Positions 2,317-39,121 of a DNA stretch of 57,010 bases are shown here, piece by piece (positions within the stretch are counted from its first letter, which is position 1; every line of letters starts with the position of its first letter). Below the pieces are notes generated by a model. It searched no databases, was not told the origin of the DNA, and saw only the letters and a list, made by a program, of their open reading frames with translations. The DNA is from Bacteroidota bacterium (GTDB lineage: Bacteria; Bacteroidota; Bacteroidia; B-17B0; Aurantibacillaceae). A program made the translations under genes and the position numbers. Where the stretch lies: NCBI GenBank assembly GCA_043749245.1, contig JAYVDU010000565.1:1-57010 (forward strand), in the 5' to 3' direction.

Positions 2317-2502
2317 ATTTTTAAATTTTAAGGGTTTAAATAAAATTAAAGTATCTATTTGTCTACAGCAAATTATTTGTGTTAAAATTCAAATCGTCAT
2401 TTTTATATTTTTCAACTTTACATAAGAATAATGTTGTAACATAAAAATTATTGCAATGAATCTTTTTCTACCTTTGTCCTTCTTAAAAACAAAACCATGA
2501 CA

Positions 2503-2537
2503 AAAAAAAGAGGTAACAATTTGTTACCTCTTTTTTA
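2503..2537 (-). terminator. Hairpin downstream of the 570-aa ATPase gene
   Basis: aaaaaagaggtaacaa-t-ttgttacctctttttt, a GC-poor stem flanked by A and T runs. Confidence 0.45.
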
Positions 2538-2554
2538 TTTATATTAAAGCTTAA

Positions 2555-4267: not shown

Positions 4268-4279
4268 AATCGTTAGTAT

Positions 4280-4564: not shown

Positions 4565-5517
4565 GAGTTTAAAAAATCGGAAATATCCTCAATAGTGTTA
4601 TTTATTTTATTGAGTGCTGCATCTTCACTAAACGTTCCACCAAAATAAAAACGATGCTTAGACGGTAAATTTTCGGTATATCCAGATTCTTCTAATAAGT
4701 TTCTTAATTGTGAGGCGTTCATCGGCAAACCTAAGCCAGAAGGTGTAGCCATATTGAAATTTTCAAAAGAGCAGATTACCCCTTTGAAAGCATCAAAGCG
4801 CATAAAGCGAGGGTCAGAGCTTAACAACGCAAGCACGTTTCTATCTAACGGTTCATCATATTGTTTAACAGGAACAATACACCCGATATATTTTTGTCTT
4901 GCTAAGTCAAGTGCAGAACCAATAACGATATTAATTTTGACTTTGATATTTGCCTTAATTAATAATTCAGCCATGATAACAGCCGATACCCCACCGTATA
5001 ACATTTCTTCGGCTTTCACTGAACCCGAAGCATCGCTGGAAATAAAAAACTCTACAGCGTGTTTGTCTCTTGATACTTCAGGGAAATAAGCAAACAGTTT
5101 TTTGGTGTTGGTTTTTACTTTTAAGTTATCAGAATACTCACTTTCTTTGGTTCGGTATAAAGACATAGCCGCTCTATCAAAACAAAACATTCCAAAACCT
5201 AAGTCATTAAATTTTAATTTTCTTGGTTGTAGTTTTTGAGTAATCGCAGGGTTTAGTTCATGGTTTACCTTTTGGTAAAGATTATCTAATAGTTCTGGGT
5301 CTTGATATTGTTTGATACCCTCTGCTAATTCTTTGTAAGTTGCTCCTGAGCCGAACCAATAATCATTGGCTTGAATCATTTTTTCAATATGGCTTTTGGT
5401 ATAGTTTACCTTATGTCCTGTGTTCTTAGGAGATAGATTAGCAAATGTTTCTTTAACCCATGCTTGATAATCCAAGAGGCTTTTAAAATCATCTTTTATA
5501 AGAGCGACTGGCTTCAT
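4561..5517 (-). CDS. vWA-like protein (partner of the adjacent AAA+ ATPase)
   Basis: MIDAS-like D-x-S-x-S in FFISSDASGSV. Overlaps by 1 nt the AAA+ gene upstream, the usual MoxR/CobS-vWA/CobT pairing. Confidence 0.5.
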   Translation of the reverse strand: MKPVALIKDDFKSLLDYQAWVKETFANLSPKNTGHKVNYTKSHIEKMIQANDYWFGSGATYKELAEGIKQYQDPELLDNLYQKVNHELNPAITQKLQPRKLKFNDLGFGMFCFDRAAMSLYRTKESEYSDNLKVKTNTKKLFAYFPEVSRDKHAVEFFISSDASGSVKAEEMLYGGVSAVIMAELLIKANIKVKINIVIGSALDLARQKYIGCIVPVKQYDEPLDRNVLALLSSDPRFMRFDAFKGVICSFENFNMATPSGLGLPMNASQLRNLLEESGYTENLPSKHRFYFGGTFSEDAALNKINNTIEDISDFLNS

Positions 5518-6836
5518 TAAAATTCAATAAATTGGGTTATGATTTTTTTTCTATACTCGTACTGTTCAAACAGTTTGGTATATCGAATTTTATCTTTCAC
5601 ATTGTTTTGTTGCAGTTTTGTAAAGGTTGATAAATAGCAGTCTAAGGCACTTTTAAACGTTTTACCCTCATTCGCTTGTATGCCATTTGGTTTATTGCTT
5701 TTTAAACGTTGCATTTCAAGAGCAAAGGCATCACGAGCTGTTTGCATAAAACGTAAGGATAATTGCGCTTCATATTTCAATTCTTCGATCACGCTTCTTA
5801 CTTTATCGCAAATGCTCCATAACATATCATTTTGTATGATTTGCCTTTCAATGGCAGGATTCTTTTCTACAAAATATACCGACCCCGAAAAGCGGTCTAA
5901 GAGCGACAAATCCTGTTTGTTGTTTGCACCATAACTCATACTTTCTTTATTGGGGTAAATATTACCTGTGGCAATACAAGCAAAATCTGGGTGTTTGGTA
6001 AAACTTTCTTTGCGTGCATTAAAAATAATAGCTTCACTTAACTTGGTTTTTGAAAGCGCATCATTAAATAAACCTGCTGTATTGGGGTCTATCTTAGGTA
6101 ATTCATCTAAGATTAACACCCAGCCATTTTTCCATGCTTCAATGAGTTTTCCCTCTACATAACCGTCCATTGTTTGACCACCTATAATTTCAGTAGGCGA
6201 AGTCCACTGTGAACAGTTAATGGTAATATATTGCCTGGCTAAAGCATTTCTACTGATTAAATTTTCTGCTGTAAAGGATTTTCCTGTACCTGCTCCGCCA
6301 ACTAAAAATACATTGTTGCCCATCATCAAATCATCTACCATTTGCTGAAATTCCTCAATGGGCGGTTTGGTAAAAGCGGGTAGGGTACGTTCGGGAAGTT
6401 CGTAACTCATGACGATTGGCAAAGAGGTAAATCGTTTTTGAACATCGCTGTCTAAATCACTGTAATGAATTTTTATTTTTTTTACGGATTCATTAACTAA
6501 TGCTTCGATGTGTTCTTTATCCTGTGTTTGCGAAACAGGATTATTAATATTGCCTTTTAGGATTTCAAACAATTGCTCAAACTCACTTTCCAAAGTACCA
6601 TTTGTTTTTTTTAAAGAACTTGGTTTGGTCGTTGCATTTTTAGGTTTGGTTGTATGTGTTTGCCCTTCGTGTCTTTCATCTATGGCTTTAAAATCCATGA
6701 GCATGGTATCTAAGTTTTGTGCAACTGTATTTTCAACAGTAAAGTTTTTACTTAAATTTTTCACCATATTAAAACGCTTGAGCGTATTTTGATCCGACTG
6801 TAAAAAATAAGCTGTGTGATTTTTCGACTGATACAT
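5517..6836 (-). CDS. AAA+ ATPase, MoxR/CobS (AAA_5)-like
   Basis: Walker A FLVGGAGTGKSF, Walker B VLILDELPK, sensor region IATGN...LLDRF. Confidence 0.8.
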   Translation of the reverse strand: MYQSKNHTAYFLQSDQNTLKRFNMVKNLSKNFTVENTVAQNLDTMLMDFKAIDERHEGQTHTTKPKNATTKPSSLKKTNGTLESEFEQLFEILKGNINNPVSQTQDKEHIEALVNESVKKIKIHYSDLDSDVQKRFTSLPIVMSYELPERTLPAFTKPPIEEFQQMVDDLMMGNNVFLVGGAGTGKSFTAENLISRNALARQYITINCSQWTSPTEIIGGQTMDGYVEGKLIEAWKNGWVLILDELPKIDPNTAGLFNDALSKTKLSEAIIFNARKESFTKHPDFACIATGNIYPNKESMSYGANNKQDLSLLDRFSGSVYFVEKNPAIERQIIQNDMLWSICDKVRSVIEELKYEAQLSLRFMQTARDAFALEMQRLKSNKPNGIQANEGKTFKSALDCYLSTFTKLQQNNVKDKIRYTKLFEQYEYRKKIITQFIEF

Positions 6837-6848
6837 GATTTCCTTATT

Positions 6849-8789
6849 TTAATGAATGTTCCAAACAGCAGGGTAGGTGATGTCTTTATCTGTTCCGTCC
6901 AATTCGTTTAAGTTTTGTTTCTTTTGTTTGAGTTCGATTTCCATTTTTAAAAGTTCGATTTCAGCTAAAGCTTCTAATTCGAGTTGTTCAATTTTATTCT
7001 GCATTTCATCGTCATTATTTTCTTCTTCTGTTTCTTCATCTTCTGTTTCTTCCAAATCGTCTATATCTCTAAATTCGATTAATGAAGAATCCTGATTGAT
7101 GGCTACAATGCGGACTGCGACCCCTGTTTGATTAAAGGCATCTTTAAATGCACCTTGTATTTTATCACTGACAAAAGCGTTAGTATTCATCAATAGTTCT
7201 CTAAACGCTTTTTCTTTTTGAAAACTTCTGAAAAACACACCCTCACTCATAATGGCAACTAAACGCCCTCCTTTGTTTAATAAGGATAAGGCGTGTAATA
7301 CATGGTCTATATCCTGCCCTTTTTCAAAAGGCGGGTTCATAATGATTTTATCAAATGTTTGGTGGAGGTTTAAAAAATCAGTTCCAACTAATTCATAACC
7401 TTTGAGTGTCAACAGCTCTCTTAAATTGTAATGGATTTCACAAGCAGATAATGTAACGGTATCATTAAATTGTTCTTGGATAGCGTCCAATATATCACCC
7501 TTCCCTGCGGATGGTTCTAAAATGCTCTCTCCTTTTTTTACTTCTGCTATACTGATTAGTTCATCAATTATTTTTTTAGGAGTAGGAAAAAAGCCATCAA
7601 TTTTTTGTGATTTGATTTTTATTTCCAGTTCTTCTATTTGACGTTGTTTCTCGCTTTGTTGTTGAACGGCTCGGTCTGAAAATTTCTTAATCAAATCAAG
7701 GCGTTGTACGTTCGCTATTGACCAATCGTAAATGCTATTAATACCTAAGGAACGAAAAGCAGTTAGTTGGTGGTCAAAAACACTTTGTAAATAATGAGCT
7801 TCGTGTTGTTTGCCGTATGTATCTGTGAACTTATTAATTAATTCTACTTGGGACTTCGTTTGTATATGTTGTAAAATATTAAATTCTTGGATTCTACCTG
7901 TTAGATGCGCTTTTGATAAGGCATATAATACATTTTGAATATTTAGTAAATAATATCCGTCTTGCCTCATACCAGAGGCTACTCGTAATCGTTTAGCGGT
8001 AGGTCGTTGCCTTGAGGTAGCAGAATTTAATTTGGCATCAATTTGTTTTTGCATCCCTTCTGCCATTGCTTTAAATTTCTCAGCTAAGGCTTTATTAGGT
8101 TTGCTTGTACTTGGTTTTTCTTCTGTGTTTGTGTCTTCGTTATTTTCGTTTTCTGTTTCTTCTTGTTCGCTTTCTTCTCCATCTTCCCCTATTATTTTAT
8201 TATAAAATTTTTTAAATTTTAATTGGTCATTATAAATAACGGCCTGTACATTGGTTTTACTTTCCAATTTTTTTTTATTCCAATAAAATTGTGGCGGTGT
8301 TCCACTCACCATAAATTCGGTGTAGTTGGTGAGCTTGTTATAAAAATCCATAGAGCGAATACTTGTCCAAAAATGACGTTTTTCATATTGGGTATCGTCT
8401 GCTTCTATTTCGTTGTCTATTAAATACGCTACTAATTCTCTTGCTTTAGGCGTGTCTATTGCATACCATATTGTTTGTTTTTCAGAAAACTGAAAATCAT
8501 GTTCTTTTAATTTTGTTCGTAATTCTTCGGTCGGACGCACCTTACCAAAACGTAATTCAATGCCATCTGGTGCTTTTTTTCCTGATTTAGAAGTACGGGC
8601 GTTATTGTATGTGATGTCAGGTTTAAATTTGATGACCCCCGATAATTCGTTATTCTCTTTATTGGCATTTAACTCTTTAGCATGAGAAAGCCTTGCCGCT
8701 AAATCTAAATCAAAATCGTCTTGTAATACCTCAGATAAGGCTTGTACAGGGGAATGGTTTTGATTATCAGGAGAAGACAAGGCTTTCAT
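6849..8789 (-). CDS. Large DNA N6-adenine methyltransferase with unassigned N-terminal domain and acidic tail
   Basis: AdoMet motif I ILEPSAGKGDIL comes before catalytic motif IV IIMNPPFEKG. There are acidic low-complexity stretches. C-terminus carries LNELDG. Confidence 0.8.
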   Translation of the reverse strand: MKALSSPDNQNHSPVQALSEVLQDDFDLDLAARLSHAKELNANKENNELSGVIKFKPDITYNNARTSKSGKKAPDGIELRFGKVRPTEELRTKLKEHDFQFSEKQTIWYAIDTPKARELVAYLIDNEIEADDTQYEKRHFWTSIRSMDFYNKLTNYTEFMVSGTPPQFYWNKKKLESKTNVQAVIYNDQLKFKKFYNKIIGEDGEESEQEETENENNEDTNTEEKPSTSKPNKALAEKFKAMAEGMQKQIDAKLNSATSRQRPTAKRLRVASGMRQDGYYLLNIQNVLYALSKAHLTGRIQEFNILQHIQTKSQVELINKFTDTYGKQHEAHYLQSVFDHQLTAFRSLGINSIYDWSIANVQRLDLIKKFSDRAVQQQSEKQRQIEELEIKIKSQKIDGFFPTPKKIIDELISIAEVKKGESILEPSAGKGDILDAIQEQFNDTVTLSACEIHYNLRELLTLKGYELVGTDFLNLHQTFDKIIMNPPFEKGQDIDHVLHALSLLNKGGRLVAIMSEGVFFRSFQKEKAFRELLMNTNAFVSDKIQGAFKDAFNQTGVAVRIVAINQDSSLIEFRDIDDLEETEDEETEEENNDDEMQNKIEQLELEALAEIELLKMEIELKQKKQNLNELDGTDKDITYPAVWNIH

Positions 8790-25716: not shown

Positions 25717-27270
25717 TTAATTTATTTTAAATAATTCCCCCACTTTAAATTCTTTCAAATTAGAAACAGCTTGATATTTTTGAATTTTCTCCATACTCGC
25801 TTTTAATTTTTGAGATTCTTTTTCTCCAATACCCATAAATTTAGACATCATTTTTAAATTAGATTTATCTTTTATATCAAACAATATAGCTGTTTCACAC
25901 ATTGTAGAAAAATCGAATGATGGTTGATTAAACTCTTCGATGCCTTGAGATAATAATACCACAGAAACCCCTTTAGAACGAATTTCACGCAATATTCTTT
26001 CTAACAACTCTTGAGATTTTTTTTGTTTAAAAATCACATGAGCTTCATCAATTAATAAAACATAACGCATGCTCTGAATATTGTTTTCAATAGGTGCGTT
26101 AGGCATATTCATAAATGTATTATAAATATAATTAATGATTAAAAACACAGATGTAAAACGTATTTCAGAAGGTAAATCACCAGATAAACTTAAATATACA
26201 TTTGAGTTTAAGAAATTCTTTTTAGGGTCAACTTTATTTTCAAATAACTCTAAATCACTTAAACTTTGAAGTATTTGAGATAATGAACTAGGCTTAGTCC
26301 CTTCAGAATTCAAAACTTCGACATATATATCTTTTAATGAAGGATAAACACCTGCCTTTTTACTATCAAATGCGGCGCGTGTTGCATCTTTTAATGTTTG
26401 TTGTTGTACTTTACCTAAGTTTGCATATTGTGAAATTATATCGACAAATTTATTAATGCCCATTATTTTATTCTTATCGTTTATGTTATCTATAAATGAT
26501 AATGGGTTAATTGGAAATGGCGTATGAGGTGCATCAATATATGAAGCTCCTGTTTTATCAAAGAAAGGTTTTAATGCTTTTTCATCTTCTTTTTTTAAAC
26601 CTTTAAAATCTAAGTAAATGAAATTTACTGCGCCTTTTGATTTATCAACTATTTGTTTAAGGAAACTATTTGCAAAATAAGTTTTACCTGTGCCTGAATT
26701 ACCCGCAATTGCAACGTGAGCATTGTTGTGAATTGATAAATCATTTAAGTTAAAATGAATTGGGGCATCTGTAGTTATATCTTTGCCAATTAATAATTTT
26801 ATTAACCCAGCGTAATGCGTTTTTGTAATTGTTTGATTATTATTTTTAACATGGTCTGGATTAAATGAAACTTCTTCCATGCCACCAATTCCTCTTTCGA
26901 TATTTTCAATTAAAAAATCAAGCCCAGTGTAATTTTTATTTACTTCAAACAACTTATAAATTAATTCTAAGCCGTTATCAATATGCATCTTTATGTATTT
27001 ACCAATATTTGGGTCGGTTTTATATAAGCCATATTGTTGGCAAATAATTGAAATGTAATAATCACGATATTTACCAAATAAAATATCGTCTTTGTATTCT
27101 TTTCCTTTACTATCCTTTAAATCTTTTTCTAAACTTAAAACCATACCTTTTGATATTGAGTATGAAAACGCAATTCTTGAAACATAATTTTCTGTCCCAA
27201 GATTCATTTTTTTAGTTAGCTCCTGAACTACTGCTTTATTGGCTTCTGATGTTCTTAAATTAATTAGCAT
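25717..27270 (-). CDS. dndE: DndE-like N-terminal domain fused to a HerA/FtsK-type P-loop ATPase
   Basis: N-terminus MLINLRTSEANKAVVQELTKKMNLGTENYVSRIAFSYSISKG resembles DndE. Then Walker A VAIAGNSGTGKTYF and Walker B YVLLIDEAH. Overlaps the dndD stop. Confidence 0.65.
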   Translation of the reverse strand: MLINLRTSEANKAVVQELTKKMNLGTENYVSRIAFSYSISKGMVLSLEKDLKDSKGKEYKDDILFGKYRDYYISIICQQYGLYKTDPNIGKYIKMHIDNGLELIYKLFEVNKNYTGLDFLIENIERGIGGMEEVSFNPDHVKNNNQTITKTHYAGLIKLLIGKDITTDAPIHFNLNDLSIHNNAHVAIAGNSGTGKTYFANSFLKQIVDKSKGAVNFIYLDFKGLKKEDEKALKPFFDKTGASYIDAPHTPFPINPLSFIDNINDKNKIMGINKFVDIISQYANLGKVQQQTLKDATRAAFDSKKAGVYPSLKDIYVEVLNSEGTKPSSLSQILQSLSDLELFENKVDPKKNFLNSNVYLSLSGDLPSEIRFTSVFLIINYIYNTFMNMPNAPIENNIQSMRYVLLIDEAHVIFKQKKSQELLERILREIRSKGVSVVLLSQGIEEFNQPSFDFSTMCETAILFDIKDKSNLKMMSKFMGIGEKESQKLKASMEKIQKYQAVSNLKEFKVGELFKIN

Positions 27271-29356
27271 CGCTGTACATTTTGTTATACGTTTTTATAA
27301 AACGTTTAGGTTCTACTTGCAAAAATTCCGAACTGTCTTCGTGAACATTAGTAATCAAATATGTTTTAGATATATTTGGTTCTAACATATCAAATTCTTT
27401 CTGCGTTAATTCTTTATTTATTAAAGGGAATATTACTACTTGGTCTGATACTTTAGGATAGAAGTGTTTTACGATGTTCTCTGAATGTTGTTCATCAAAT
27501 TTTTGCATTGGAGAATCAATAAATACAGGAAAGTCAATATTAGATTCTTCAACTAAACCACTTAATAGAGATGTAGCATACATTTGTTGTTCACCTTTAG
27601 ATAAAGTTTCTTTTTTAATTTCTTCCTTTCTGCCATTAAATAATCTTATATCAATATCATCTCCAATAATATCAACTTGAACTTTTTTCACAAATCCTTT
27701 TTTATGCATTAATGTTCCTAGTCCTTTTAAAATTTGTTTTTCGAGCGATACTTTTTTATTTTCTTTAAATTGTTGAATGAACTCTTTAAGGTTAGATATT
27801 TGAGCAGTAACAAGAGCATCTTTTTCTTTATTTACTTTCGATACATCTAATTTTTGAGCAATTTCTTGAATTTTTTTATTGATTTGAATTTTACTATTAC
27901 TTTTCTCTCCTTTTTCAAAAATCAAATCTTCACATTTTTTTTCAAGTTGAAAAATCTCATTATCTAAATTTTCTTTTCGACTGCGGTATTCTGCAATAAT
28001 AATATCTTCTGAATTAGCCTCTGCATCTCTTAACTTTTTTCTAACCAAATTCAATTCGTTTTTCGCTTGATTTACATCTCCTGTTATACGCTTAAACGAT
28101 TCTTTAAATGATAAACGGATGCTACTTAATAAGGCATTTAATTCGCTTTTTTCAGAATCTGAGTAATCATGTATTGTTTTGAAATCAGAGTTTAATTCAG
28201 GGGCATCAGCAAAAAAATGTTTTTTAATTAATTTCTCAAATAAATTTGCATAATATGTATGAACATTATGTTCTATGACAATTTCTGCGGGTCTTTTTTC
28301 ATTAAATAAATCATTTAAAACTTTATCAGTAGTTCCTTTAATATTTTCTTGTTGATATTTTTGCTTTTTAAAATTAGACTCATTTTCGACTTGTACTGCC
28401 ACATCAGAAAATTTAGAACCTGCAATTGCAAAAGGAATTATCTCGAATTGCTCTTTTAATTCAGCCATGTGGCTGTCTAATTTCGAGTTTAAATCAACTT
28501 CTTTTGAACGAAGTTTGTTTAATTCTTCAACCGTAATAGCACTACCTGCACGAATTAATTTCTCTTGAATATCGTTTGATTCTTTTCTTTTTTCAAGAAT
28601 TTGTTCTTTTGATTCTTTTATTTTAGTGTCGCTAGCATTATTTGATATATCAATCTTATCACTGCTTGCTTTTAAATTAACAAGTTCTTCTTTTTCTTTA
28701 TCGCTTGCTGAATCTTGACGAAGCTTTAATTGTAATTCTTCTAAATTACCTTTTAATTCCTCATATTTTTTAATGCCTAAAACCTCGCTATAAGCTTCAC
28801 TTAATTTTCTTCTTTGTTCAGGGGTATTTATTTCAGCAAGAGCTGTGATTTTTTCAGCATCAAAAAAGAAAAATTTTGCAATTTCCTTGGGCAAAATATA
28901 ATCACGAATAAAATATTCGGGCCCAAGTTCATTAGATAATTCACTTGGAATTCCATCAATTAAAATTTCAACAGTTTCTCCTGTTGTTGTTTCAATATCA
29001 TAAGTGCGTTTAATTTTTATTTCTTTACAAGGCAAGTCTGGAATATTTAACTTGTTAAATGTTATAGCTACATGAAACTGGGTTTCTCCTTTAACTTTGG
29101 CTAAACGGTTTAATGAATTTATAATATATTTATTATATCCGCCCTGATCCCCAATTTCTTTTAAATAAAGGTCGTCAACTTCCTGCATTTGTTTACCTTA
29201 TAAGCACCAAACCAGCGACATTAAAAAAGTTGTTTTACCAAAACCATTACGCCCACTGATTAGGAATATGTTTTTTGATTCTTCTGGGGTCAAATCAATA
29301 GTGTTAGAACCTTTATATATTCTAAAATTATCGAGTTCAATTTCTTTAATAAACAT
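27260..29356 (-). pseudogene. dndD: dndD (SMC/ABC-like ATPase) interrupted by an in-frame TAA at codon 53
   Basis: My translation from ATG 29356: MFIKEIELDNFRIYKGSNTIDLTPEESKNIFLISGRNGFGKTTFLMSLVWCL*GKQMQEVDD... The stop is at 29198-29200 and the frame continues unbroken to 27260. C-terminal LSKGEQQ signature and VFIDSP Walker B are present. Confidence 0.8.
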
Positions 29357-29902
29357 ATTATTTTTTCTTTTTATTATCTTTTAAATAAACATCCAACACA
29401 TTCTCTAAATGGTTAGCCTATTCACAATTTTTTTTTACAAAAATCTTTTTTGCCCTGTGCTTCCTTAATTTTAAAGAACGATTTTTTTTAATCACTACCG
29501 TAAATATACATAAAAATACTTTTAATTCGATGGTGGTGTGTGTGGTATGCGTAAATACCATTATTCTTTTGTTTGTCTTGTATCTCCTACTTTTGTATAG
29601 GTTTGTTCTCTTAGTAAATAAAAATCATGCAATTTATACACCGCTTAACTGCCTGTTTATAAATACGTTTTGCAATACACTAACATAAAATGACAACATT
29701 GGATATTAGCAAGTATCTATGTGTTAGTTTATCTTTGTAAAAAAATATACACCAATGACACATACATATTATCAAACCACAGATTCAGCTCCTACTACGT
29801 TTATGGGGTCGTTATTTTTATACTTGTTTAATTTTTATTCCCCTTCTTTTTTTACAATCAACACCCTTTAATGGTTTCAATTATACTGCAACGATTCCGA
29901 TT

Positions 29903-30748
29903 ATGAATATCTTAAAAAATTCTTATGGCGTAACAGCCGTTTTCAAACAAAAAGTGTCAAATTTCCTTACGAATGGTGGGTTTACAGGCTCTTCTCTTAA
30001 CCGTATACCACAACGCAAAGAACCCAAACTCAAAACCATAGCCGAACTTTTGCAACCAACACCAACTAATACCGAAAAAAAAGAACGATGTATGTCAAGC
30101 AGAACAAAGTCAAAAATCAGAGCGAAGACAATTGCATTTTCTAAACTCTACAAAAAATTAAGTTTTATGACTTTAACCTTTGTGAATGAGGTAAGCGACG
30201 AACAAGGTGTTTTAATGCTTCGTAAGTTTTTGGACAACATGAAAAAAAGAAAAAAAGATTTTCAGTATTTGTGGGTAGCTGAAAAGCAAATAAACAACAA
30301 GGTGTTTAAAGACAATATCCATTTTCACATCATCACCAATAAATATTGGGATGTGGCTAAGTGTTGGAAGTATTGGGTTGATTTACAACAAAAGCATGGC
30401 ATTGTACCGCGCCATGAACAGTTTAAGGCATCGTCAGCCTTTGATGTCAAAGGTTTAGTATCAAATAATATCAAAGGGATTTCAACTTACATCACTAAAT
30501 ATATTACCAAAAATGCCAGTACGTTTAAATGCCAAGTGTGGAACTGCTCTAAAAAAATATCAGCGTTATACACAGGGTTTTATTCTGACGAATCTTTTTT
30601 AGAAAATATTAAACGAGTGCCTGATATTAAAATTACAGAGGTTACAAAGGATTATTGTGATCTCCATTACATACCGCTTAATAAAACAACGATGCATTTT
30701 TACGATTCCATAGAACGCCAAAATAAAAAGATGTGGGGTAAAATTTAA
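29903..30748 (+). CDS. HUH rolling-circle replication initiator (two-tyrosine, phiX174 gpA/Microviridae-VP4-like motif set)
   Basis: Motif I SFMTLTF, motif II (HUH) NIHFHIIT, motif III STYITKYITKN (Y-x-x-K-Y-x-x-K). Confidence 0.8.
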   Translation: MNILKNSYGVTAVFKQKVSNFLTNGGFTGSSLNRIPQRKEPKLKTIAELLQPTPTNTEKKERCMSSRTKSKIRAKTIAFSKLYKKLSFMTLTFVNEVSDEQGVLMLRKFLDNMKKRKKDFQYLWVAEKQINNKVFKDNIHFHIITNKYWDVAKCWKYWVDLQQKHGIVPRHEQFKASSAFDVKGLVSNNIKGISTYITKYITKNASTFKCQVWNCSKKISALYTGFYSDESFLENIKRVPDIKITEVTKDYCDLHYIPLNKTTMHFYDSIERQNKKMWGKI

Positions 30749-30783
30749 AAACGATTCTAATTAACCCCATACTAGACAAATTC

Positions 30784-31845
30784 TTATTGTTCTTTGTAAT
30801 GGTATCGTGTGCCTTTCAGTGTTCCTGTTTTAAATATCAAGGCTTCATTAGTAAGATAAGTTAAATCTTTTTTTAAGGTATTACGAGAGTAATGTTTAAA
30901 TGCTTCTTCTACTTCGCTCATTTGCACTTTCTTTTTCTTTTTAACGAATGATAAGATTTCTTGTTGCCTCTCGTTTACATCTTTTTTAAACTTACTATAT
31001 TGCTCATATTTCGCTTCCAATCGTTGCGTGAGTGTTATTAAGCAATCCATAAAGAATAACATCCACTGATCTATTTTTTCCGTTTTCTTGTATCGGTTTT
31101 TCTGACCATCCATCAAAGCCCTATAATAATCATCTTTTCGTTCTTCTATAATATGCTCAAAGGAAACGTATTGTGTAAATTCATAACCCTGTTGCATTAA
31201 TAACAACGTGGTTAAAAGCCTTGATAATCGACCGTTTCCATCTTGATATGGATGTATCGATAAAAACTCATAAACGAAAGCTCCTGTTATCATAATGGGG
31301 TGCATATCTACTTTTTCAAAACGCTCATTAACCCACAACAATAACTCTTCCATTTCTTTTGCTGTTAATGCTGGGTCGGTTGTTTTAAAAATAGTTCGAT
31401 GTGTCCCGTCAGGATAATTAGCTACAACTTGATTAGATAAGCGTTTATATTTGCCTTTATGGCTTTGGTCTTTGCCACTATGTTTTAATAAGATGCCATG
31501 TAGTTGATGTATATATCTTTCTGATAAAGTAATGTCTTTATAATTATCAAGTATTATGTGTAAGGTTTCGTAATAGCCGACAACCTCTTGTTGTTCTCTT
31601 GTGGTGAGCTTTGTTATTTTTACCGACTTCAATAATTTTTCTACTTCTGCATCTGTTAGGGTTGCCCCTTCAATACGAGTAGATGAGCCTATACTTTCTA
31701 TGGTCGCTATTTTTTTGAGTTCTTTTAAATGTTTGCTATGTTTTAATTCTATGGTTTCCCAATTCCCTCTAAAACGGTCAATGATACCTAACTGTTTCAT
31801 GATGTGCTGAAAAGTATCGCCTGTAAATTCTAATTTCTGTTTCAT
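30784..31845 (-). CDS. Fic-family protein with N-terminal autoinhibitory helix
   Basis: Fic active site HPYQDGNGRLSR. Inhibitory (S/T)xxxE(G/N) motif occurs as SSTRIEGA near the N-terminus. Confidence 0.9.
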   Translation of the reverse strand: MKQKLEFTGDTFQHIMKQLGIIDRFRGNWETIELKHSKHLKELKKIATIESIGSSTRIEGATLTDAEVEKLLKSVKITKLTTREQQEVVGYYETLHIILDNYKDITLSERYIHQLHGILLKHSGKDQSHKGKYKRLSNQVVANYPDGTHRTIFKTTDPALTAKEMEELLLWVNERFEKVDMHPIMITGAFVYEFLSIHPYQDGNGRLSRLLTTLLLMQQGYEFTQYVSFEHIIEERKDDYYRALMDGQKNRYKKTEKIDQWMLFFMDCLITLTQRLEAKYEQYSKFKKDVNERQQEILSFVKKKKKVQMSEVEEAFKHYSRNTLKKDLTYLTNEALIFKTGTLKGTRYHYKEQ

Positions 31846-31910
31846 GGTTATGTGCTTTTTATGGATATATCCAAAACGTATCCAAATATATCCAAATATA
31901 ATTTAAAATA

Positions 31911-32819
31911 TTAACTAAAAGGGTGATGCTTTAAGAGTGTATCGGTTAAGCTGTCGATTTCTTGTAGTTCAAATTTCTCGGTGCTACTAATGTATTTGTG
32001 TCCTGCCATATACTGTGCTTGTCTTTTGCCATATACTTTTATCCAATGGATAATAATACTGGTTCGTAGTTGTGATGCGTTGTGTACTTTTTGATTGATG
32101 CCTTTTAATTCGTTAAGGATACGATACAGGTGATTGTCGATGTTGCCGATAAATAGCGATTGGTTGTTAGTTGTTTGTTTTTGGTTGTTGGAGTTTTGTA
32201 ATTGTGGCAATCCTTCGTTGATGTATTTATAAAGTTGTAATATTTGATTGGGATACAATTTTAATTCTCTTGATGCACCACGCTTACACTTTGGTATATA
32301 GATAGTGCCATCGTTTAAATTAATGTGATCTAAGCTCATTTTAGCTATCTCGCCACTAATTGCGCCTTGCCATATTAATAAGCCTGTTAAAACGTTGTTT
32401 CTTTGCTTTACAAAAGGTGTTGTTGGATTATTTGTTTTTGGTTGTTGAAGCTTTAAGTACTGATTATATAATTGCTCAAGCTCTGTGTAAGATAAAATGT
32501 TTTGTGTAATGGTTTTTAGTTCGCCTTTTAGTTTTATTTTTTTGGTTGGATTTCTTTCAATGATACCAATGTGTTTGAGGTATTCGTAATATTTGCTTAG
32601 GCTGTTTAATCTTAGTTTAATGGTTTGTACTTTGATGTTATTGGTTTTTTGTTGTTTGATAAAGTTGAGTAATTCTAAGTAAGTGAGGTTATCTATGCTT
32701 GTGTATTGTTCCTGTGTTGCCCATGAATGAAAGCGTTTCATATTATTGATGTGTTCGCTAATGGTTCGTTGGCTTAGTTTTTCGGTTTGTAAATAGCTTG
32801 TGTAGCCTTCTAATTTCAT
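31911..32819 (-). CDS. Tyrosine-recombinase-fold protein with degenerate active site
   Basis: Start moved to MKLEGY (32819). Catalytic Arg box reads GAISGE, not G-x-R-x-x-E. The C-terminal box reads AGHKYISSTEKFE, with Phe where the nucleophile Tyr is expected. Confidence 0.65.
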   Translation of the reverse strand: MKLEGYTSYLQTEKLSQRTISEHINNMKRFHSWATQEQYTSIDNLTYLELLNFIKQQKTNNIKVQTIKLRLNSLSKYYEYLKHIGIIERNPTKKIKLKGELKTITQNILSYTELEQLYNQYLKLQQPKTNNPTTPFVKQRNNVLTGLLIWQGAISGEIAKMSLDHINLNDGTIYIPKCKRGASRELKLYPNQILQLYKYINEGLPQLQNSNNQKQTTNNQSLFIGNIDNHLYRILNELKGINQKVHNASQLRTSIIIHWIKVYGKRQAQYMAGHKYISSTEKFELQEIDSLTDTLLKHHPFS

Positions 32820-32857
32820 AGTAGATAAAGGATTAATGATGTAAGATGAATGATTGA

Positions 32858-33856
32858 TTATAATTGTGTGAGATTGCTTCGTTCCTCGCAATGACGCACT
32901 ATGTGAGTATATATTTGAGTTGATTCTAAACTACTATGTCCTAAAAATTTTGCAATGTCTTCTATTTTCATCCCGCTTTGTAAAAGGTGTGTTGCAATGG
33001 AGTGGCGGAATGTGTGTGTTGCAAAATCTTTTTCTATGCCTGTGAGTTCTTTTAAATAAGCGAAGCGTTGATAAAACGCATTCATGCGCTTGCCTTGCTG
33101 ATTAAGGAAAAAGGCTTCATCATCTGTGTTTTGTTTTTTATTTTTTATGTTTAGTTTTTTGTTTTTATAACTGCCGATGATATATGTACCGTTATTCATT
33201 AAAAACCATTCTCGCCCCTGTTCTAAATAATCTTTGATGTCTTGTAAATGTTTGCTTGCGATTGGTACATAGCGTTGTTTGTTTCCTTTGGCTTTTCTTA
33301 CGAATACTAAACCTTTATAAGTATCTATATCATATATATTTAAGCGTGTGCCTTCGTCTTTGCGTAATCCGCAACCATAAAACAGGGCTATGATGGCTCT
33401 ATCTCGCTGTCCTATTGCAAGTGTATTTTCTCGATGTGGTGTAAAGGTTGCTTCATACAAAAGTTTTATTTCTTCTTTGGTTAAAATTGTTTTTTCTAAA
33501 CTCGTTGATACTACTCGCTTTGGCGTGATGTCTAAAATATGTTTATCGGTGGCGTTGATATATTTTGCAAAGGTATTTACGGCGTTGATTATTTTATTTA
33601 TACTGCTTGTGCTTAATCCTGTGCCTGTTCGCGCGCTCTTACGTGTTTTGATGTATGTAATAAAATCGTATGTTCTTTTAGCTGTTACTTGATTGATTTG
33701 AGTTATATTTTTTTCTTGTAAGTAATATAAAAATTCTCGTACGTGTATTGGCCACGAGTTCGTGGTGGTTTCGGAGTAGCCTATGATTGCTAACCACTCT
33801 TTAAAGCTTTGTTCTAAATAAATGAAGGATGTGTTTGTGAGGGTTAAGTGTTTCAT
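32858..33856 (-). CDS. Tyrosine recombinase (XerC/D-like), canonical active site
   Basis: GCGLRKDEG (Arg I), THTFRHSIATHLL (H-x-x-R), LGHSSLESTQIYTHI (His, Tyr). Confidence 0.9.
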   Translation of the reverse strand: MKHLTLTNTSFIYLEQSFKEWLAIIGYSETTTNSWPIHVREFLYYLQEKNITQINQVTAKRTYDFITYIKTRKSARTGTGLSTSSINKIINAVNTFAKYINATDKHILDITPKRVVSTSLEKTILTKEEIKLLYEATFTPHRENTLAIGQRDRAIIALFYGCGLRKDEGTRLNIYDIDTYKGLVFVRKAKGNKQRYVPIASKHLQDIKDYLEQGREWFLMNNGTYIIGSYKNKKLNIKNKKQNTDDEAFFLNQQGKRMNAFYQRFAYLKELTGIEKDFATHTFRHSIATHLLQSGMKIEDIAKFLGHSSLESTQIYTHIVRHCEERSNLTQL

Positions 33857-33897
33857 GTTTTTTTAGGGGTGTGTAGTACTTTTGGTGTTTTATACAA

Positions 33898-35493
33898 CTA
33901 CTTCGCTTTTTCCTTTGTTGGCTTGGCTTTAAGTGGTTGTACTACCGATACAACCGCTTGCAACTGCTTAACTGCTTGGAGGCTTTTGGCATGACTTTGT
34001 TCTAATACTTTTTGTATGTGTTCTTCTAATACTTTGTATTCGTTGGGATTAGTGATACTATATGTAAATCCTTTTTTTTGATTGCCTGTATTTTTTTTGA
34101 TGTAACCGTTTTGTATTAAGCTTAACATGTGTTGCTTTTGGCTGTTGACATTGAGTTTATAGTGTTGCCGTACTTCTTTGGTTTTAAATTCAATATGTTG
34201 CTGTTCTTTTAAATATGTTTTTAGTAGTTCTAAATAGTTACGTGTGGCTCCGTTTAATTCATCTGACTTGCGTAATAAAATATGTTTGATTAATTCGTTG
34301 GCTTGCTGTATGTCTTCTATTGTAGTGGTAATAAAGATTTCGCCTGTGTCGGTGTTTACTTCTTCTTGCCGTTGGTATTGATTGTAAAACGTAATAGCTT
34401 CTATAAATTGTAAGTAGTGTGCATTGGTGCGACGCTTTTTAAATACTTCGTTTGGGAGTTGTAAATATTCGGCATAGGGATTTATAATGGTGACGGACTT
34501 TAACAGGCGTTGCGCATTTTGTAATAAATTTTTGGCTTTGTGTTCTTCTTCTTTATCTATTTTGCCTGCATAGCTCTTGCGTTGGTAATCCATAATTTTT
34601 GCGTCTTGCGCTTCGCTATCGTCTAAGTATATAAGGAATGAACGGTTTGCGTTGTCTTCGTATATCTGTTCGTCTGTTGTACATGAGCCAATGCAAACAG
34701 GGCCTTCTACTTTTTTAGTGATCGTAATGGTATCGCCTTTGCTATTTTTGTGTGATACTTCTTTGATGATGTATTTTTTAGATTGCAGTTCTCTGATTGG
34801 GTACATCGAGCTTTCAGCGCCTGTTAAGTCTTCGAGTAATATTAGTTTGTGTTTTAAAATGGTTTGTTCTTGATAGTAAAAACTATTAGGTGATAAGGCG
34901 GTGATTTCTTTTTTATCTTCTTCGGGGATGCATTGCGCTACTTTTTCTTGTAAATAACTCTTTCCTGTTCCGCTACTAGCAAGGGATATAATGTGTAGTG
35001 GGTTTTGTAGTTTGCGAGTTGTGAAAATTAGATACATAATGATGCGATTTGTTTCTTCGCCTACGATGCCAGAACGACCTAAGTAGTCAGATGTTAGATG
35101 TAAGAGGTTGTGTGTTTGTAAAAATTCTTTGGCTTCTTTAATTTCTTCTTCTGTGAGGGTTTTTGTTTTGATTTGTTGGTTTTTGGATTGCTCAATTTCT
35201 TTTAAACGATAGGCTTCGAGTTCATTAATTAAATTACCTATGGCTTTTTGTATGTATTGTATGCCTACTTCCAAGCCTTCGGCTGTTGTTTTGCAAAAGC
35301 GTTGTAGCGCAGAGTTGTTGTACAAATCAAGCGTATGGCGTTGCTCGCTATTAAAGTGCTTTACTTTGATGGTGGCTCGCATGTTGTTCATCACATCTAA
35401 CTTGATGCCTCCTAATACTTCAAAATGGATTTGTTCGTGGGAGTATAATAGGTGTTCGGGGTTGGTGGTGTTTAAGGTGGGGTTGGATTGCAT
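33898..35493 (-). CDS. P-loop NTPase, primase/helicase-like (D5/P4-type candidate)
   Basis: Walker A LASSGTGKSYL and Walker B-like KLILLEDL. Context is next to recombinases and a divergent XRE regulator. The family assignment is not verified. Confidence 0.5.
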   Translation of the reverse strand: MQSNPTLNTTNPEHLLYSHEQIHFEVLGGIKLDVMNNMRATIKVKHFNSEQRHTLDLYNNSALQRFCKTTAEGLEVGIQYIQKAIGNLINELEAYRLKEIEQSKNQQIKTKTLTEEEIKEAKEFLQTHNLLHLTSDYLGRSGIVGEETNRIIMYLIFTTRKLQNPLHIISLASSGTGKSYLQEKVAQCIPEEDKKEITALSPNSFYYQEQTILKHKLILLEDLTGAESSMYPIRELQSKKYIIKEVSHKNSKGDTITITKKVEGPVCIGSCTTDEQIYEDNANRSFLIYLDDSEAQDAKIMDYQRKSYAGKIDKEEEHKAKNLLQNAQRLLKSVTIINPYAEYLQLPNEVFKKRRTNAHYLQFIEAITFYNQYQRQEEVNTDTGEIFITTTIEDIQQANELIKHILLRKSDELNGATRNYLELLKTYLKEQQHIEFKTKEVRQHYKLNVNSQKQHMLSLIQNGYIKKNTGNQKKGFTYSITNPNEYKVLEEHIQKVLEQSHAKSLQAVKQLQAVVSVVQPLKAKPTKEKAK

Positions 35494-35658
35494 AATATAG
35501 GTTACTTTAATTGTTGATAATTTTAGATATAGTACTTATTGGTGACAAATATAATACATAGGTTTTAATCAAACAACACCTTTAGGATTTGCATAGCATA
35601 AATAAGTGTCTTATTTTTGCTTTTAATACCGCTTTAAGGTGTTTTTAATTACTTATTT

Positions 35659-35991
35659 ATGACTTTTGGAGAACGTATAACATACCAACGCAAGCAAAAA
35701 AAATGGTCGCAAGATGATTTAGCCAAAAAAATTGGCACCTCTGCGCCTATTATTGGGCGCTATGAGCGTGATGAGATTAAGCCTTCTATTGAAGTGGCTT
35801 CAAAGATTGCTGAGGAATTAGATGTTACTATTGATTACTTAATTAATGGGACTGCTATTTTACTTGATAAACATAATATCGAACGTTTACAGGATATACA
35901 AAAGTTGAACGACGACGATAAACAACATGTTTTAACTACGCTTGATGCGCTTTTAAGAGATGCTAAGGCTAGGAAGGCGTATGCTAAATAA
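35659..35991 (+). CDS. XRE-family HTH transcriptional regulator
   Basis: WSQDDLAKKIGTSAPIIGRYERDEIKPSIEVASKIAEEL is a canonical Cro/C1 HTH. Confidence 0.85.
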   Translation: MTFGERITYQRKQKKWSQDDLAKKIGTSAPIIGRYERDEIKPSIEVASKIAEELDVTIDYLINGTAILLDKHNIERLQDIQKLNDDDKQHVLTTLDALLRDAKARKAYAK

Positions 35992-36033
35992 TTATATACT
36001 TAAAAATTATTTACTTAAAACCGTTTGAACAAT

Positions 36034-36321
36034 ATGAAAATACTACATTATATACAAGAAAACAGACTAGCGTTTTGGATTTCGTTATTTTATGTGATTT
36101 TAGGGGGTATTGCGGTTTGCTCAACAAATCCTGATGATCTATTATATAGCGAATTACTTGATTGGGTATGGTTAATTACTTTACCTGTAAATATGATTAG
36201 TTTAGCGTATGATTTTACTAGTGGAAGAAACTATTTTGTAATAATAATAATTCAAATAGTAATGTTTATTCCAACATTTATAATTATTTCAAAACTAATA
36301 GCTATAAAAAGAAATAAGTAA
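36034..36321 (+). CDS. Small multi-pass membrane protein
   Basis: Three hydrophobic helices (FWISLFYVILGGIAVC, WVWLITLPVNMISLAY, FVIIIIQIVMFIPTFIIISKLI). ATG at 36034; the track start is a TTG. Confidence 0.45.
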   Translation: MKILHYIQENRLAFWISLFYVILGGIAVCSTNPDDLLYSELLDWVWLITLPVNMISLAYDFTSGRNYFVIIIIQIVMFIPTFIIISKLIAIKRNK

Positions 36322-36369
36322 ATAGTGTAAAAAAATAGAAAGAGAAAATTGTTATAATTCAAACTTTGT

Positions 36370-36864
36370 TTATTTAAATATAATTGAATTCACACTATGG
36401 GTAAACTCATCTTCATAATTATTAAAATTACCTTCTATAGTATTATATGTAATAACAAATAAATCTCCTTCAATAATGGTACTGATCGAATAACTTAAAA
36501 ACACCATTTGTGATGATACAATTCTTTTTAAAAAACGTACTCCTTTAAATGACGAATAATTAATTTCTTTAACCTCTTCTATTTTACTTTTAGAATCAGA
36601 GAAACCATTTTTATATTCTTCGGATTTTAGAAATTCGTAGTTTGTTATAGGTGATTTTGCTCTAATTATATTTATCAAATATTTAACCGAAGAATCAGGA
36701 TTCATTATTGTAAATAAATCCTGATAGCCAGTATTTGTATGATCTATTTGATGTTTATATATTTTCTCTATATCAATTTTCAACTTATTTTGCACACAGT
36801 CTACTGTAAGATATTTATCAGAGTTTAGAACAAAAAAAGTTATGCAAAAAAAAAGATATTTCAT
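36370..36864 (-). CDS. Candidate immunity protein for the upstream RHS-type C-terminal toxin
   Basis: 164-aa ORF 37 nt downstream of the toxin-bearing ORF on the same strand. This is the standard rhs-CT/immunity position. No family recognised. Confidence 0.4.
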   Translation of the reverse strand: MKYLFFCITFFVLNSDKYLTVDCVQNKLKIDIEKIYKHQIDHTNTGYQDLFTIMNPDSSVKYLINIIRAKSPITNYEFLKSEEYKNGFSDSKSKIEEVKEINYSSFKGVRFLKRIVSSQMVFLSYSISTIIEGDLFVITYNTIEGNFNNYEDEFTHSVNSIIFK

Positions 36865-36901
36865 TTTTAATAAGTTTAGTTAATAATTTATTTAAATATT
36901 T

Positions 36902-39121
36902 TTAATGAGGCGCCCAATTATTTACACTTTCGATGCCTTTTGATGTTTCATATTTAACATCACTTATAAAGTCAGCTATATCATTATAAATATTTGTAGG
37001 AGTATCTTTAACCACAATTAATACCGCTTTAACTACTAATAAGTAATTTGAAACAATAATAACAGTAGCAGCTCTCTTTCCTGTTGTTCCAATTGTTAAT
37101 GGCTTTCCTTCATATGTGTTTGGTTTTGCTCCGGCAATTGGTAAAATAACATAATTTTCTACAACTTTAGCTACTCCCTTTAAACCAACAATTCCTAATT
37201 CTAAATCACCCTTCAAATTTCCCGCAGTTCGATGTGTCCAATCGCCACTTGTTTGATCATGAGGTTTACCTCCATACTCATCAATATAATCATTTCCTTT
37301 CGGTGTGAAAGTTTCTGTACCATCGTTATGTTTTGGATTATTTTCAGTACCCAAATAGACAGAGCCCATACGGTTTTTACCCACAGTGGCAGGGTTTACT
37401 GCTTTTGGATCTGGTGTCTTTGCAGAATTTTCTGCTTTTTTGTCTTTAGTAGACGTTTTAGTTTCTGTTTTATTTTTCACCTTACTACTTTCCAACCCTT
37501 CTAAATCAACCGCTAGTATTGGATTATTTGAAGCAAATTGATACGTTGAATAAAAAGGGAATTCTTTAAACATTGGATCAATACTCCAGAACTTGCCTAA
37601 TCGTGGATCATATCCTCTATATTTAAAATCTATGTGATTTCCATCTCCACTAATTTCATCATCTTTTTCTTGTTTATTAAATGAATAACGATATTTAGAA
37701 CTACTGAACGTCCTTCCGACTAACGGTGCGCCAAATGGAGTGTAATCAGTGGCATTAACCACATCAGGAAGAAAAAAATCAATCACGTTATCTCCGTTAT
37801 TATCTACTGCAATTTTCCTATCAGATAGAACTGTAAGTACATTCCCTAATTCATTCAACAACCCACGTTTACGGAGCATTAATGTTTTGGCTTTTTGTAT
37901 AGCTAACATGTGTTGTATTAGCTCTACTTGGTCTCCAGAATCATTACACGCTTTAGAAAGAAGTTCTGCTTCCTTTTTATATTTTTCATCGTGTTTTCCC
38001 ATTTTCATATCTTTATTATAGATTTTATTATATATATCAGAAACTTTATATGTGTATATACCGTCCCTATACCACTGTATTTGTATTGCTATCAGTTCTT
38101 GATTAGTAATTAACTGTGTGCCTGGTTGTTCTTTATTAATTTCATCTTGAGCTTTTAAAACACTTTCCAAAATTTTAGCTCTAATGTTTGGCTTATAAGG
38201 GCCGTATTGTCCCTCTAATAATTGGCGGTTACCTCTACCAAATTTTTCTCGATACTCCTCTTTATTATCTCTCGATTCAACCAAAAAATCTCGTATTTCA
38301 GATAATGGTTCCATCCATGCTTCGCCATTTTCTATTAGTGCATCCATTGATTTGTCTTTTGAAACAACTGTACAAACCCAACACCCAAAACGACTACTGC
38401 CACATGATGGAGTAGTTTCATCGATAACTAGAGGGCAATCACCACTATTAGCATTGCGATACAAAGTAACTAATTCCTTATGAGTACCTCCCCAAGGTGG
38501 AGAAACTTGCATCAAATATTGCCATAATTCATTAGTCGTAATGTCCTTTATTGGAGCATATACAAAAGCATTAGGTAGAACGTGCTTTCTTAAACGCTGC
38601 CCTTTAATTTCGTGTTTTTTTATTGAACGAGCTCTTGTAGCACTTTCCGCCGAACGTGTACCTAATAAAATAATTGCCTCCCCTTTTTCACTAATTTTTT
38701 CAGTAATAAAACGAGTAGTTGGATTGATTTTTAAACGTTCGGTACACCACCTAAACATATTCGTTGGGGCAGGATAACCTTTGCCAGCAACATTTAACCA
38801 AAAAGTATCTTCCAATCTAGGTCTTGTTCTTTCAACCCTAATGGGTAATCCTTGTTCTACTGCTGATTTTTCAACTCTTTTCAAAGTTCTTTCAATAAAA
38901 TCAACTATTCTAGGATTTTCAACTAATGTGTCGTTACAAACCACATAAATATCGCGTGTCCAAGCAACATCTTTAATTTTAGATAAAGCGTTCCAAACTA
39001 ATTGTAACAACAGAGTTGAATCCTTTCCACCACTAAAACCAATAATCCAAGGACGAGGGTCATCATCATGAAGATACTGGTCAATAATTTCGGATTCTAT
39101 ATATTCGATATTAAGATTCAT
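36902..39121 (-). CDS. dndC: Chimeric ORF: DndC (PAPS-reductase/PP-loop sulfurtransferase) fused in frame to an RHS core fragment and C-terminal toxin domain
   Basis: aa 1-~430 are DndC-like, with PP-loop FSGGKDSTLLLQ and Cys cluster CGSSRFGCWVCT. aa ~455-545 are DYTPFGAPLVGRTFSSSKYRYSFNKQEKDDE...YRGYDPRLGKFWSIDP...NNPILAVDLEGLE, an RHS repeat-associated core ending in a DPxGL-like motif. aa 546-739 are an unassigned CT domain. Confidence 0.8.
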   Translation of the reverse strand: MNLNIEYIESEIIDQYLHDDDPRPWIIGFSGGKDSTLLLQLVWNALSKIKDVAWTRDIYVVCNDTLVENPRIVDFIERTLKRVEKSAVEQGLPIRVERTRPRLEDTFWLNVAGKGYPAPTNMFRWCTERLKINPTTRFITEKISEKGEAIILLGTRSAESATRARSIKKHEIKGQRLRKHVLPNAFVYAPIKDITTNELWQYLMQVSPPWGGTHKELVTLYRNANSGDCPLVIDETTPSCGSSRFGCWVCTVVSKDKSMDALIENGEAWMEPLSEIRDFLVESRDNKEEYREKFGRGNRQLLEGQYGPYKPNIRAKILESVLKAQDEINKEQPGTQLITNQELIAIQIQWYRDGIYTYKVSDIYNKIYNKDMKMGKHDEKYKKEAELLSKACNDSGDQVELIQHMLAIQKAKTLMLRKRGLLNELGNVLTVLSDRKIAVDNNGDNVIDFFLPDVVNATDYTPFGAPLVGRTFSSSKYRYSFNKQEKDDEISGDGNHIDFKYRGYDPRLGKFWSIDPMFKEFPFYSTYQFASNNPILAVDLEGLESSKVKNKTETKTSTKDKKAENSAKTPDPKAVNPATVGKNRMGSVYLGTENNPKHNDGTETFTPKGNDYIDEYGGKPHDQTSGDWTHRTAGNLKGDLELGIVGLKGVAKVVENYVILPIAGAKPNTYEGKPLTIGTTGKRAATVIIVSNYLLVVKAVLIVVKDTPTNIYNDIADFISDVKYETSKGIESVNNWAPH

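Follow-up and report, generated by a model that had tools for sequence, protein, structure and literature searches.

The window, by which we mean the whole 57,010-bp stretch of DNA analysed here, encodes a 517-residue protein that is, judged by its sequence, an orthologue of DndEi, the "extended DndE" of Bacteroidota dnd clusters, in which a DndE domain is followed by a HerA/FtsK-class ATPase. Taken as a whole, the explanation that this orthologue acts as a motor on the modification side of the dnd system, and that the system in the window is probably dead, appears to us very likely. The DndE-ATPase fusion, to which an earlier note on this DNA had drawn attention, is already known, with a name since 2013 and a biochemistry since 2016. 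A 2018 review (PMC6435447), which credits Barbier 2013 and Zheng 2016, names DndEi for Riemerella anatipestifer ATCC 11845, Flavobacterium indicum and Kordia algicida OT-1, and dndEi is also mentioned in Prevotella and Bacteroides (PMC7464106). The correct label is useful, as annotation pipelines would call the protein a "DndE family protein" or a "HerA-like helicase", and its neighbour "PbeC".

The dndEi gene and its surroundings are listed in Table 1. The coding strand is the minus strand; translated from the plus strand, the same interval is riddled with stop codons. The peptides quoted in the earlier note, including MLINLRTSEANK, are all found in the minus-strand frame, and the single fused polypeptide that it described corresponds to one uninterrupted ORF. 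Matches in Pfam, PADLOC and NCBIfam support both domains. Moreover, the ORF is intact, and at all positions without variation among 15 aligned orthologues (alignment A1; 66-85% identical to the window protein) it encodes the shared residue. Alignment A1, the AF2 model, the profile search of the PDB and the search of 50%-identity clusters were made with a 516-residue query without the initial Met, and residue numbers taken from this query are those of the full protein minus one.

Table 1. Features of the dndEi locus, with positions in the window and residue numbers of the encoded proteins.
Feature	Position	Strand	Remarks
dndEi	25717..27270	-	single 517-aa ORF, ATG start; DndE domain, then predicted HerA/FtsK-class ATPase
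DndE DNA-binding domain	26944..27258	-	aa 5-109; PF08870, PDB 7X4E; DSKGKEYKDD motif (aa 53-62), invariant columns in alignment A1
Predicted HerA/FtsK-class ATPase part	25753..26802	-	PDB 7ES4 (DptH C-domain); Foldseek matches
Walker A, GNSGTGKT	26680..26703	-	aa 190-197; invariant in 15/15 aligned orthologues
Walker B, VLLIDEAH	26038..26061	-	aa 404-411; D and E invariant in alignment
Candidate arginine finger LREIRSKG and sensor-1 Gln LLSQG	25942..25992	-	aa 427-434 and aa 439-443; invariant
dndD-like ABC ATPase gene	27260..29356	-	TIGR03185 DndD, E=9e-63; in-frame TAA 29198-29200; stop overlaps dndEi start
dndC	36902..39121	-	aa 15-430, TIGR03183; in-frame read-through into Rhs-associated core and C-terminal region of inserted element
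Mobile insertion	29405..37845		8,441 bp; between dndC body and its last ~48 nt
GIY-YIG (URI) nuclease-like gene	25181..25711	-	176 aa; first cassette gene; GIY aa 66, YVG aa 89, R aa 99
DGQHR/DndB-like (ParB superfamily) gene	23889..25169	-	426 aa; second cassette gene
Two uncharacterised trailing genes	22807..23879	-	86 aa and 267 aa; no family matches
iscS/dndA-type cysteine desulfurase gene	21616..22794	+	convergent; PADLOC DndA and SspA, E ~1e-166; Aminotran_5, E=3e-86

In full-length alignments, F. indicum WP_014388836.1, annotated as [quoted passage not shown], shares 73% identity with the window protein, and its counterpart in K. algicida OT-1 (locus L076) shares 55%. The genes of this K. 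algicida locus follow the order dndC-dndD-dndEi-URI (GIY-YIG)-DGQHR that is also found in the window. These full-length identities to the named DndEi proteins of F. indicum and K. algicida assign the window protein to DndEi. The DndEi proteins of Riemerella, F. indicum and K. algicida share the two-domain architecture and the length of the window protein. The DndEi operon, dndC-dndD-dndEi with dndA, is likewise the same, except that dndC and dndD of the window are disrupted; the protein itself is no different.

The N-terminal domain is a member of the DndE family. PF08870 of Pfam matches it with an E-value of 2e-20 and a score of 73.6 bits (gathering cut-off 25), spanning profile positions 2-108 of 111, and a profile of the 15 orthologues matches the solved DndE of Natronorubrum bangense (PDB 7X4E) with an E-value of 2e-6 over query residues 23-105. 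The earlier note had described the first ~130 residues as DndE-like and proposed a profile search of this half, which thus returned significant matches. The NCBIfam DndE equivalog TIGR03184 matches the same stretch with 40.7 bits, under its cut-off of 71.85, and the window protein, which is not a small stand-alone protein either, lies outside canonical DndE. Canonical DndE (E. coli; N. bangense 7X4E) is homologous to the N-terminal ~110 residues, and its gene takes the same position after dndD, but it has only ~110-135 residues and no ATPase, compared to 517 residues and an ATPase in the window protein.

Structure prediction, another check that had been suggested, gave an AF2 model, built from 15 close homologues, with a mean pLDDT of 66.5. 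The ATPase region, with pLDDT mostly 70-90, adopts a fold like that of PDB 7ES4, whereas the DndE half is of low confidence (pLDDT 50-70), too low for its fold to be read from the model; the double ribbon-helix-helix fold of DndE is taken from the literature.

Structural similarity search using Foldseek with this model placed the C-terminal domain of DptH (PDB 7ES4) at the top, with an E-value of 2.5e-15 and a target-normalised TM of 0.78, followed by VirB4 (4AG5), HerA (4D2I), Sir2-HerA, TrwB, TdpAB and FtsK. The 15-orthologue profile also matches 7ES4 in the PDB, with an E-value of 7e-15 over query residues 162-491, and the DndH C-terminus of PADLOC matches the ATPase half with an E-value of 8e-33. 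The closest solved relative of the ATPase is thus the C-terminal motor of DndH/DptH, by sequence as well as by fold, in agreement with the link that the earlier note had drawn between this ATPase type and DndH/DptH. Pfam gave AAA_10 at residues 181-494 of the C-terminal half, and also FtsK_SpoIIIE, TrwB, HerA_C and DUF87 (weak matches).

The Walker A (AGNSGTGKTYF) and Walker B motifs on which a HerA/VirB4/FtsK class had been proposed are both present. According to Rakesh et al. (PMC10853773), two features are diagnostic of HerA/FtsK rather than RecA ATPases, namely an arginine finger shortly before core strand 4 and a sensor-1 Gln at the end of this strand. The arginines of LREIRSKG and the Gln of LLSQG are invariant among the 15 orthologues, and align with the R and the Q of EGREYG...LSTQE in the DptH C-domain. 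Given this pattern and the P-loop fold matches, the C-terminal half of DndEi is assigned to the HerA/FtsK/VirB4-class ATPases, with its predicted catalytic motifs intact. The same authors (2024) class the DndE-fused ATPase as HerA/FtsK, within a "clade-3" shared with some DndH motors, and describe both the fusion of HerA/FtsK to DndE beside a DndD-related ATPase and the repeated capture of HerA/FtsK domains in Dnd-related proteins (PMC10853773). The ring ATPases HerA, VirB4, TrwB and FtsK, including Sir2-HerA, DUF4297-HerA and TdpAB, are of the same P-loop fold class (Foldseek E-values of 1e-10 to 1e-5), but share only 10-17% sequence identity with the window protein. Neither a HAS-barrel nor an FtsK-gamma domain was identified in the window protein, in which the DndE domain occupies the N-terminal place.

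Despite the similar motor, the window protein is not a DndH/DptH. DndH is a restriction-side protein of ~1700 residues and eight domains, encoded together with dndF and dndG, and only its last ~350 residues match the window protein, at residues ~157-500. The two motors have the arginine-finger and sensor-Gln pattern in common, whereas the remainder of DndH, including its inactive methylase and its REase, has no counterpart in the window protein. PADLOC alignments to DndH begin at residues 13-24, as if DndH contained a DndE-like segment. We rejected this reading because the 7ES4 profile match starts at about residues 150-160, as do phmmer alignments with full-length DndH; DndH-size proteins (1700-1870 aa) match only query residues ~156-504, and the DndH domain list of Rakesh et al. 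is without DndE (PMC10853773).

For the genomic context, loci were compared using tblastn with the window proteins, and all ORFs of 80 loci and the window (81 in total) were clustered. In all 80 loci, and in the window as well (81 of 81), the gene immediately upstream of dndEi encodes a dndD-like ABC ATPase (~698 aa), and across loci the stop of this gene overlaps the dndEi start. Further upstream, dndC (~440 aa, with a PAPS-reductase domain) is found in 74 of 81, and a convergent iscS/dndA gene takes the same position as in the window in 43 of the 80 loci. The window has dndC, dndD and iscS/dndA, in an order that recurs in 74-80 of 80 related loci, and a second, stand-alone dndE is present neither in any of the 80 loci nor in the window. 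Altogether, dndEi sits in a dnd modification cluster, in the slot of dndE, although dndC and dndD of the window are disrupted.

PADLOC labels the dndD-like neighbour of the window as PbeC, with an E-value of 1.6e-167. We rejected this label for want of the CxC motif. Neither CxC nor CxxC occurs in any of 65 full-length dndD-like neighbours, which places them in the DndD clade and not in the CxC/Pbe clade as defined in PMC10853773, and the label appears to be an annotation artefact. The Pbe system resembles the present locus in that PbeC, an ABC ATPase of CxC type, is paired with a DndE-family protein, PbeD, just as dndD is paired with dndEi. They differ in that PbeD is small (152 aa) and has no ATPase, and in that the Pbe system possesses a CxC Zn-hook at the coiled-coil apex and the HKD-SF2 helicase PbeA, neither of which belongs to the window locus; no PbeA-like gene was found in the loci.

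Downstream of dndEi, the window carries a cassette of a nuclease-like and a DndB-like gene. The 176-residue product has weak Pfam and NCBIfam matches to GIY-YIG/UvrC/intron-endonuclease families, and the 426-residue product matches TIGR03187 (DGQHR) with 76.9 bits against a cut-off of 58.85 and Pfam DndB with an E-value of 4.5e-20. The two trailing genes, searched against Pfam, PADLOC and NCBIfam, gave no family match, and their types recur rarely (the 86-residue type in 3 and the 267-residue type in 6 of 81 loci). A linkage between the fusion and GIY-YIG/DGQHR genes, which the earlier note had proposed to survey, is found in part of the family: the GIY-YIG family (cluster C5) is present in 23 of 81 loci, and 22 of these 23 were scored with the DGQHR gene alongside it, the pair lying directly downstream of dndEi.

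Over the 80 loci and the window, with annotation by Pfam, the cassettes comprise a small membrane-type protein with a DndB-like protein (26 loci), the GIY-YIG and DGQHR/DndB-like pair (22, including the window), an unannotated pair of clusters C10 and C13 (11), a GHKL ATPase with Methyltransf_35 (6), and a ParB_N protein with two unknown genes (4). These cassettes of two or three genes are interchangeable downstream of dndEi: different ones follow DndEi proteins that share as much as 90-96% identity, as in loci L009 and L013, whose DndEi proteins are 96.3% identical.

DndEi is proposed to act in modification. The protein, whose gene occupies the DndE slot of the dndC-dndD-dndEi operon with its convergent iscS/dndA, would hold or tether DNA through its DndE domain. 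The motor, which by analogy with other HerA/FtsK ATPases probably forms an oligomeric ring, would spend ATP on unwinding DNA, or on translocating it, at the recognition motif. Once the DNA is opened or moved, DndC, DndD and a persulfide derived from IscS would place sulfur in the backbone in exchange for oxygen. As summarised in the 2018 review (PMC6435447), the extra domain of Riemerella DndEi has ATPase and helicase activity, a helicase-dead form loses PT modification, and unmodified DNA carrying GAAC/GTTC, the PT recognition site, strongly stimulates the ATPase. Domains, orthology, gene neighbourhood and conserved motifs are observed here; the Riemerella properties (ATPase, helicase, requirement for PT modification and response to GAAC/GTTC) may hold for the window protein by analogy. 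The helicase of the 2016 description and the HerA/FtsK dsDNA translocase of the 2024 classification are two different mechanisms.

The earlier note had instead suggested that the fusion reads modified sites and blurs the division between modification and restriction. In such a restriction-side or dual device, the DndE domain would sense modified or nicked sites and the motor would feed the nuclease encoded downstream (GIY-YIG with DGQHR), forming a self-contained system without DndFGH. The proximity of the ATPase to the DndH/DptH motor is consistent with this idea, and so are three further points: the 57,010-bp window has no ORF of DndH length, the longest (959 aa) encoding IF-2; in most loci, the genes directly after dndEi form a nuclease-like or ParB/DndB-like cassette; and HerA rings serve as effector platforms in Sir2-HerA, DUF4297-HerA and TdpAB, which are among the fold matches. 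Nevertheless, we regard a restriction-side or dual device as unlikely, because the published role is on the modification side, where the motor is needed for modification itself and responds to the unmodified motif (PMC6435447), and because dndEi stays constantly in the dndC-dndD-dndE slot with swapped cassettes behind it. The exchange of cassettes between nearly identical DndEi proteins argues against a co-adapted interface between DndEi and an effector, and it is dndD, rather than the cassette, with which dndEi is coupled in translation.

With DndEi read as a modification-side motor, mechanistic interest is confined to the fast-swapping cassette, whose exchange is quantified here. Besides its role in modification, the DndEi ring might conceivably serve as a docking or activation platform for whichever cassette follows, a speculative notion to which we give little weight. 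It would cover the GIY-YIG and DGQHR pair, the membrane protein with the DndB-like protein, the GHKL and methyltransferase-like pair, and the ParB-like trios, and may be likened to the HerA rings that license Sir2 or DUF4297 effectors. If true, a dndC-dndD-dndEi core and a swappable effector would make up a complete PT-based defence without DndFGH.

A further alternative is that the ATPase half is a non-catalytic scaffold with no motor activity, which only brings DndE into oligomers and keeps DndC and DndD in place. HerA/FtsK domains have indeed been "captured" repeatedly in Dnd-related proteins (PMC10853773), and canonical DndE already oligomerises (PMC6435447). However, none of the catalytic elements (Walker A, Walker B, arginine finger and sensor Gln) varies among the orthologues, and both ATPase and helicase activity are reported for the Riemerella orthologue (PMC6435447); we therefore consider a scaffold without motor activity very improbable.

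Full-length relatives of the window protein are abundant. A search of 5.8 billion protein clusters gave 992 matches at E<=1e-5 among the candidates scored, and the best 120 of these 992 are all 511-524 residues long, align over 98-100% of the query and contain PF08870 as well as PF12846. Among 1.84 billion representatives of 50%-identity clusters, 854 matches were found at E<=1e-3, many of which are 500-540 residues long and align end to end, with identities down to ~25%. One of these clusters is named "DndE family protein [Hydrogenophaga sp.]", from which it follows that the architecture is not limited to Bacteroidota. The phyletic survey that the earlier note had called for, in which each GTDB species was represented by one genome, identified 176 species-representative genomes that encode a relative; the best 80 of these 176 loci were fetched, nearly all from Bacteroidota, and dndEi is a single ORF in all 80. 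That the ORF is an artefact of adjacent dndE and ATPase genes fused by a sequencing or assembly error, the objection that the earlier note had raised against its own reading, is motivated solely by the small, stand-alone nature of canonical DndE and found no support, and it is refuted, with next to no probability left, by the same one-ORF architecture and length in the best 120 cluster relatives and in 80 independent genomes, complete isolate genomes among them, and by a linker that aligns without frameshifts.

The system to which this intact protein belongs has probably become non-functional in the window, with dndC split and dndD interrupted by a premature stop, and the locus is probably a recently inactivated remnant. 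In dndD, the stop takes the place of a Tyr found in 65 of 65 full-length relatives, and the translated window sequence is "WCL*GKQ". The TAA, which follows codon 52, cuts off a 52-residue Walker A segment from the remaining 642 residues; it was read from assembled contigs only, so that an error of the consensus is possible. The dndC ORF matches TIGR03183 with a score of 445.8 bits (cut-off 290.4) and continues into TIGR03696 (Rhs_assc_core, residues 460-543) and a ~195-residue unannotated tail. The window makes up a complete contig of chromosomal Bacteroidota DNA, encoding IF-2, NusA, FabF and a T9SS sorting-domain protein, with a GC content of 33%.

The insertion that splits dndC was mapped by blastn against the closest intact locus, L053, whose DndEi is 85% identical to that of the window. 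Its genes encode an Rhs tip, a 164-residue ORF, an HTH_3 protein, a 531-residue ORF, two tyrosine recombinases, a Fic/DOC protein and a rolling-circle-type Rep. The label "recombinase-in-trio" was not adopted for the insert, because the 531-residue ORF beside the two tyrosine recombinases has no family match. A search of the insert for terminal repeats gave nothing convincing, but only a 4-nt overlap at the junction and an imperfect ~13-nt repeat, TTAGRGAATGT. The public runs that contain the window DNA are labelled sediment metagenome. The insert reaches a word depth of ~40x in runs X1 and X2, compared to ~21x for its flanks. In run X3, positions 29404 and 37846 are directly joined on a contig of a related strain, which represents the empty site.

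Among the 80 fetched genomic loci that harbor dndEi relatives (L001-L080), at least five interchangeable cassettes, each of two or three genes, occupy the slot directly 3′ of dndEi. These cassettes consist of GIY-YIG and DGQHR genes, genes of a membrane protein and a DndB-like protein, members of the ORF clusters C10 and C13, GHKL and Methyltransf_35 genes, or a ParB_N gene accompanied by two unknown genes. Different cassettes adjoin DndEi proteins that are 90-96% identical to each other. The two genes that close the dnd cluster of the window gave no family matches, and recur sporadically at the same position, the 86-aa gene in 3 and the 267-aa gene in 6 of the 81 loci (the window included).

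Features of the window within and outside the dnd cluster
Feature	Position	Strand	Remark
Integrase-like protein gene	within 496-8789		Arm-DNA-binding and SAM-like domains
AAA_24 protein gene	within 496-8789		left end
AAA_5 (McrB-like) ATPase gene and partner	within 496-8789		left end; partner of 318 aa
N6-methylase-domain protein gene	within 496-8789		left end; 646 aa
Two genes, 86 aa and 267 aa	22807-23879	minus	end of dnd cluster
dndD-like ABC ATPase gene	27260-29356	minus	PADLOC label PbeC, E=1.6e-167
In-frame TAA in dndD-like gene	29198-29200	minus	context WCL*GKQ
Mobile element, 8,441 bp	29405-37845		inserted ~48 nt before dndC end
Orphan Rhs-associated core domain with C-terminal region	36902-37845	minus	at element's end; C-terminal region of ~195 aa, unannotated
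164-aa ORF	36370-36864		after Rhs-bearing ORF

The mobile element in dndC has a depth of ~2-fold that of its flanks in two public sediment-metagenome runs (X1 and X2), and an empty-site contig is present in a third run (X3). It encodes two tyrosine recombinases, an HTH protein, Fic/DOC, Rep and a 531-aa ORF of unknown type, with no clear terminal repeats found. At the Rhs end, DndC, the Rhs-associated core domain and the C-terminal region are now joined in frame, forming a 739-aa ORF. This C-terminal region is possibly a toxin tip, for which the 164-aa ORF could be the immunity gene.

The TAA within the dndD-like gene, which is seen in assembled contigs only, cuts a 52-aa Walker A segment off from the other 642 aa; all 65 full-length relatives have a Tyr at this position. 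The PbeC label of this gene was rejected, as the CxC motif, the defining mark of the Pbe/CxC clade, is missing from the family, and PbeA is absent nearby. Such a call represents an annotation pitfall for defence-system finders.

Bacteroidota-like dndEi genes of 57-72% identity were also found in five loci (L005, L021, L036, L049 and L069) from MAGs labelled Bosea, Roseobacteraceae, Hyphomicrobiales, Woesearchaeota and Acidaminococcaceae. The contigs that carry them include several of only 4-14 kb, but the one assigned to Bosea extends over 52 kb. Their presence under non-Bacteroidota labels probably reflects binning contamination rather than transfer. In addition, the left end of the window may be a further defence or mobile island.
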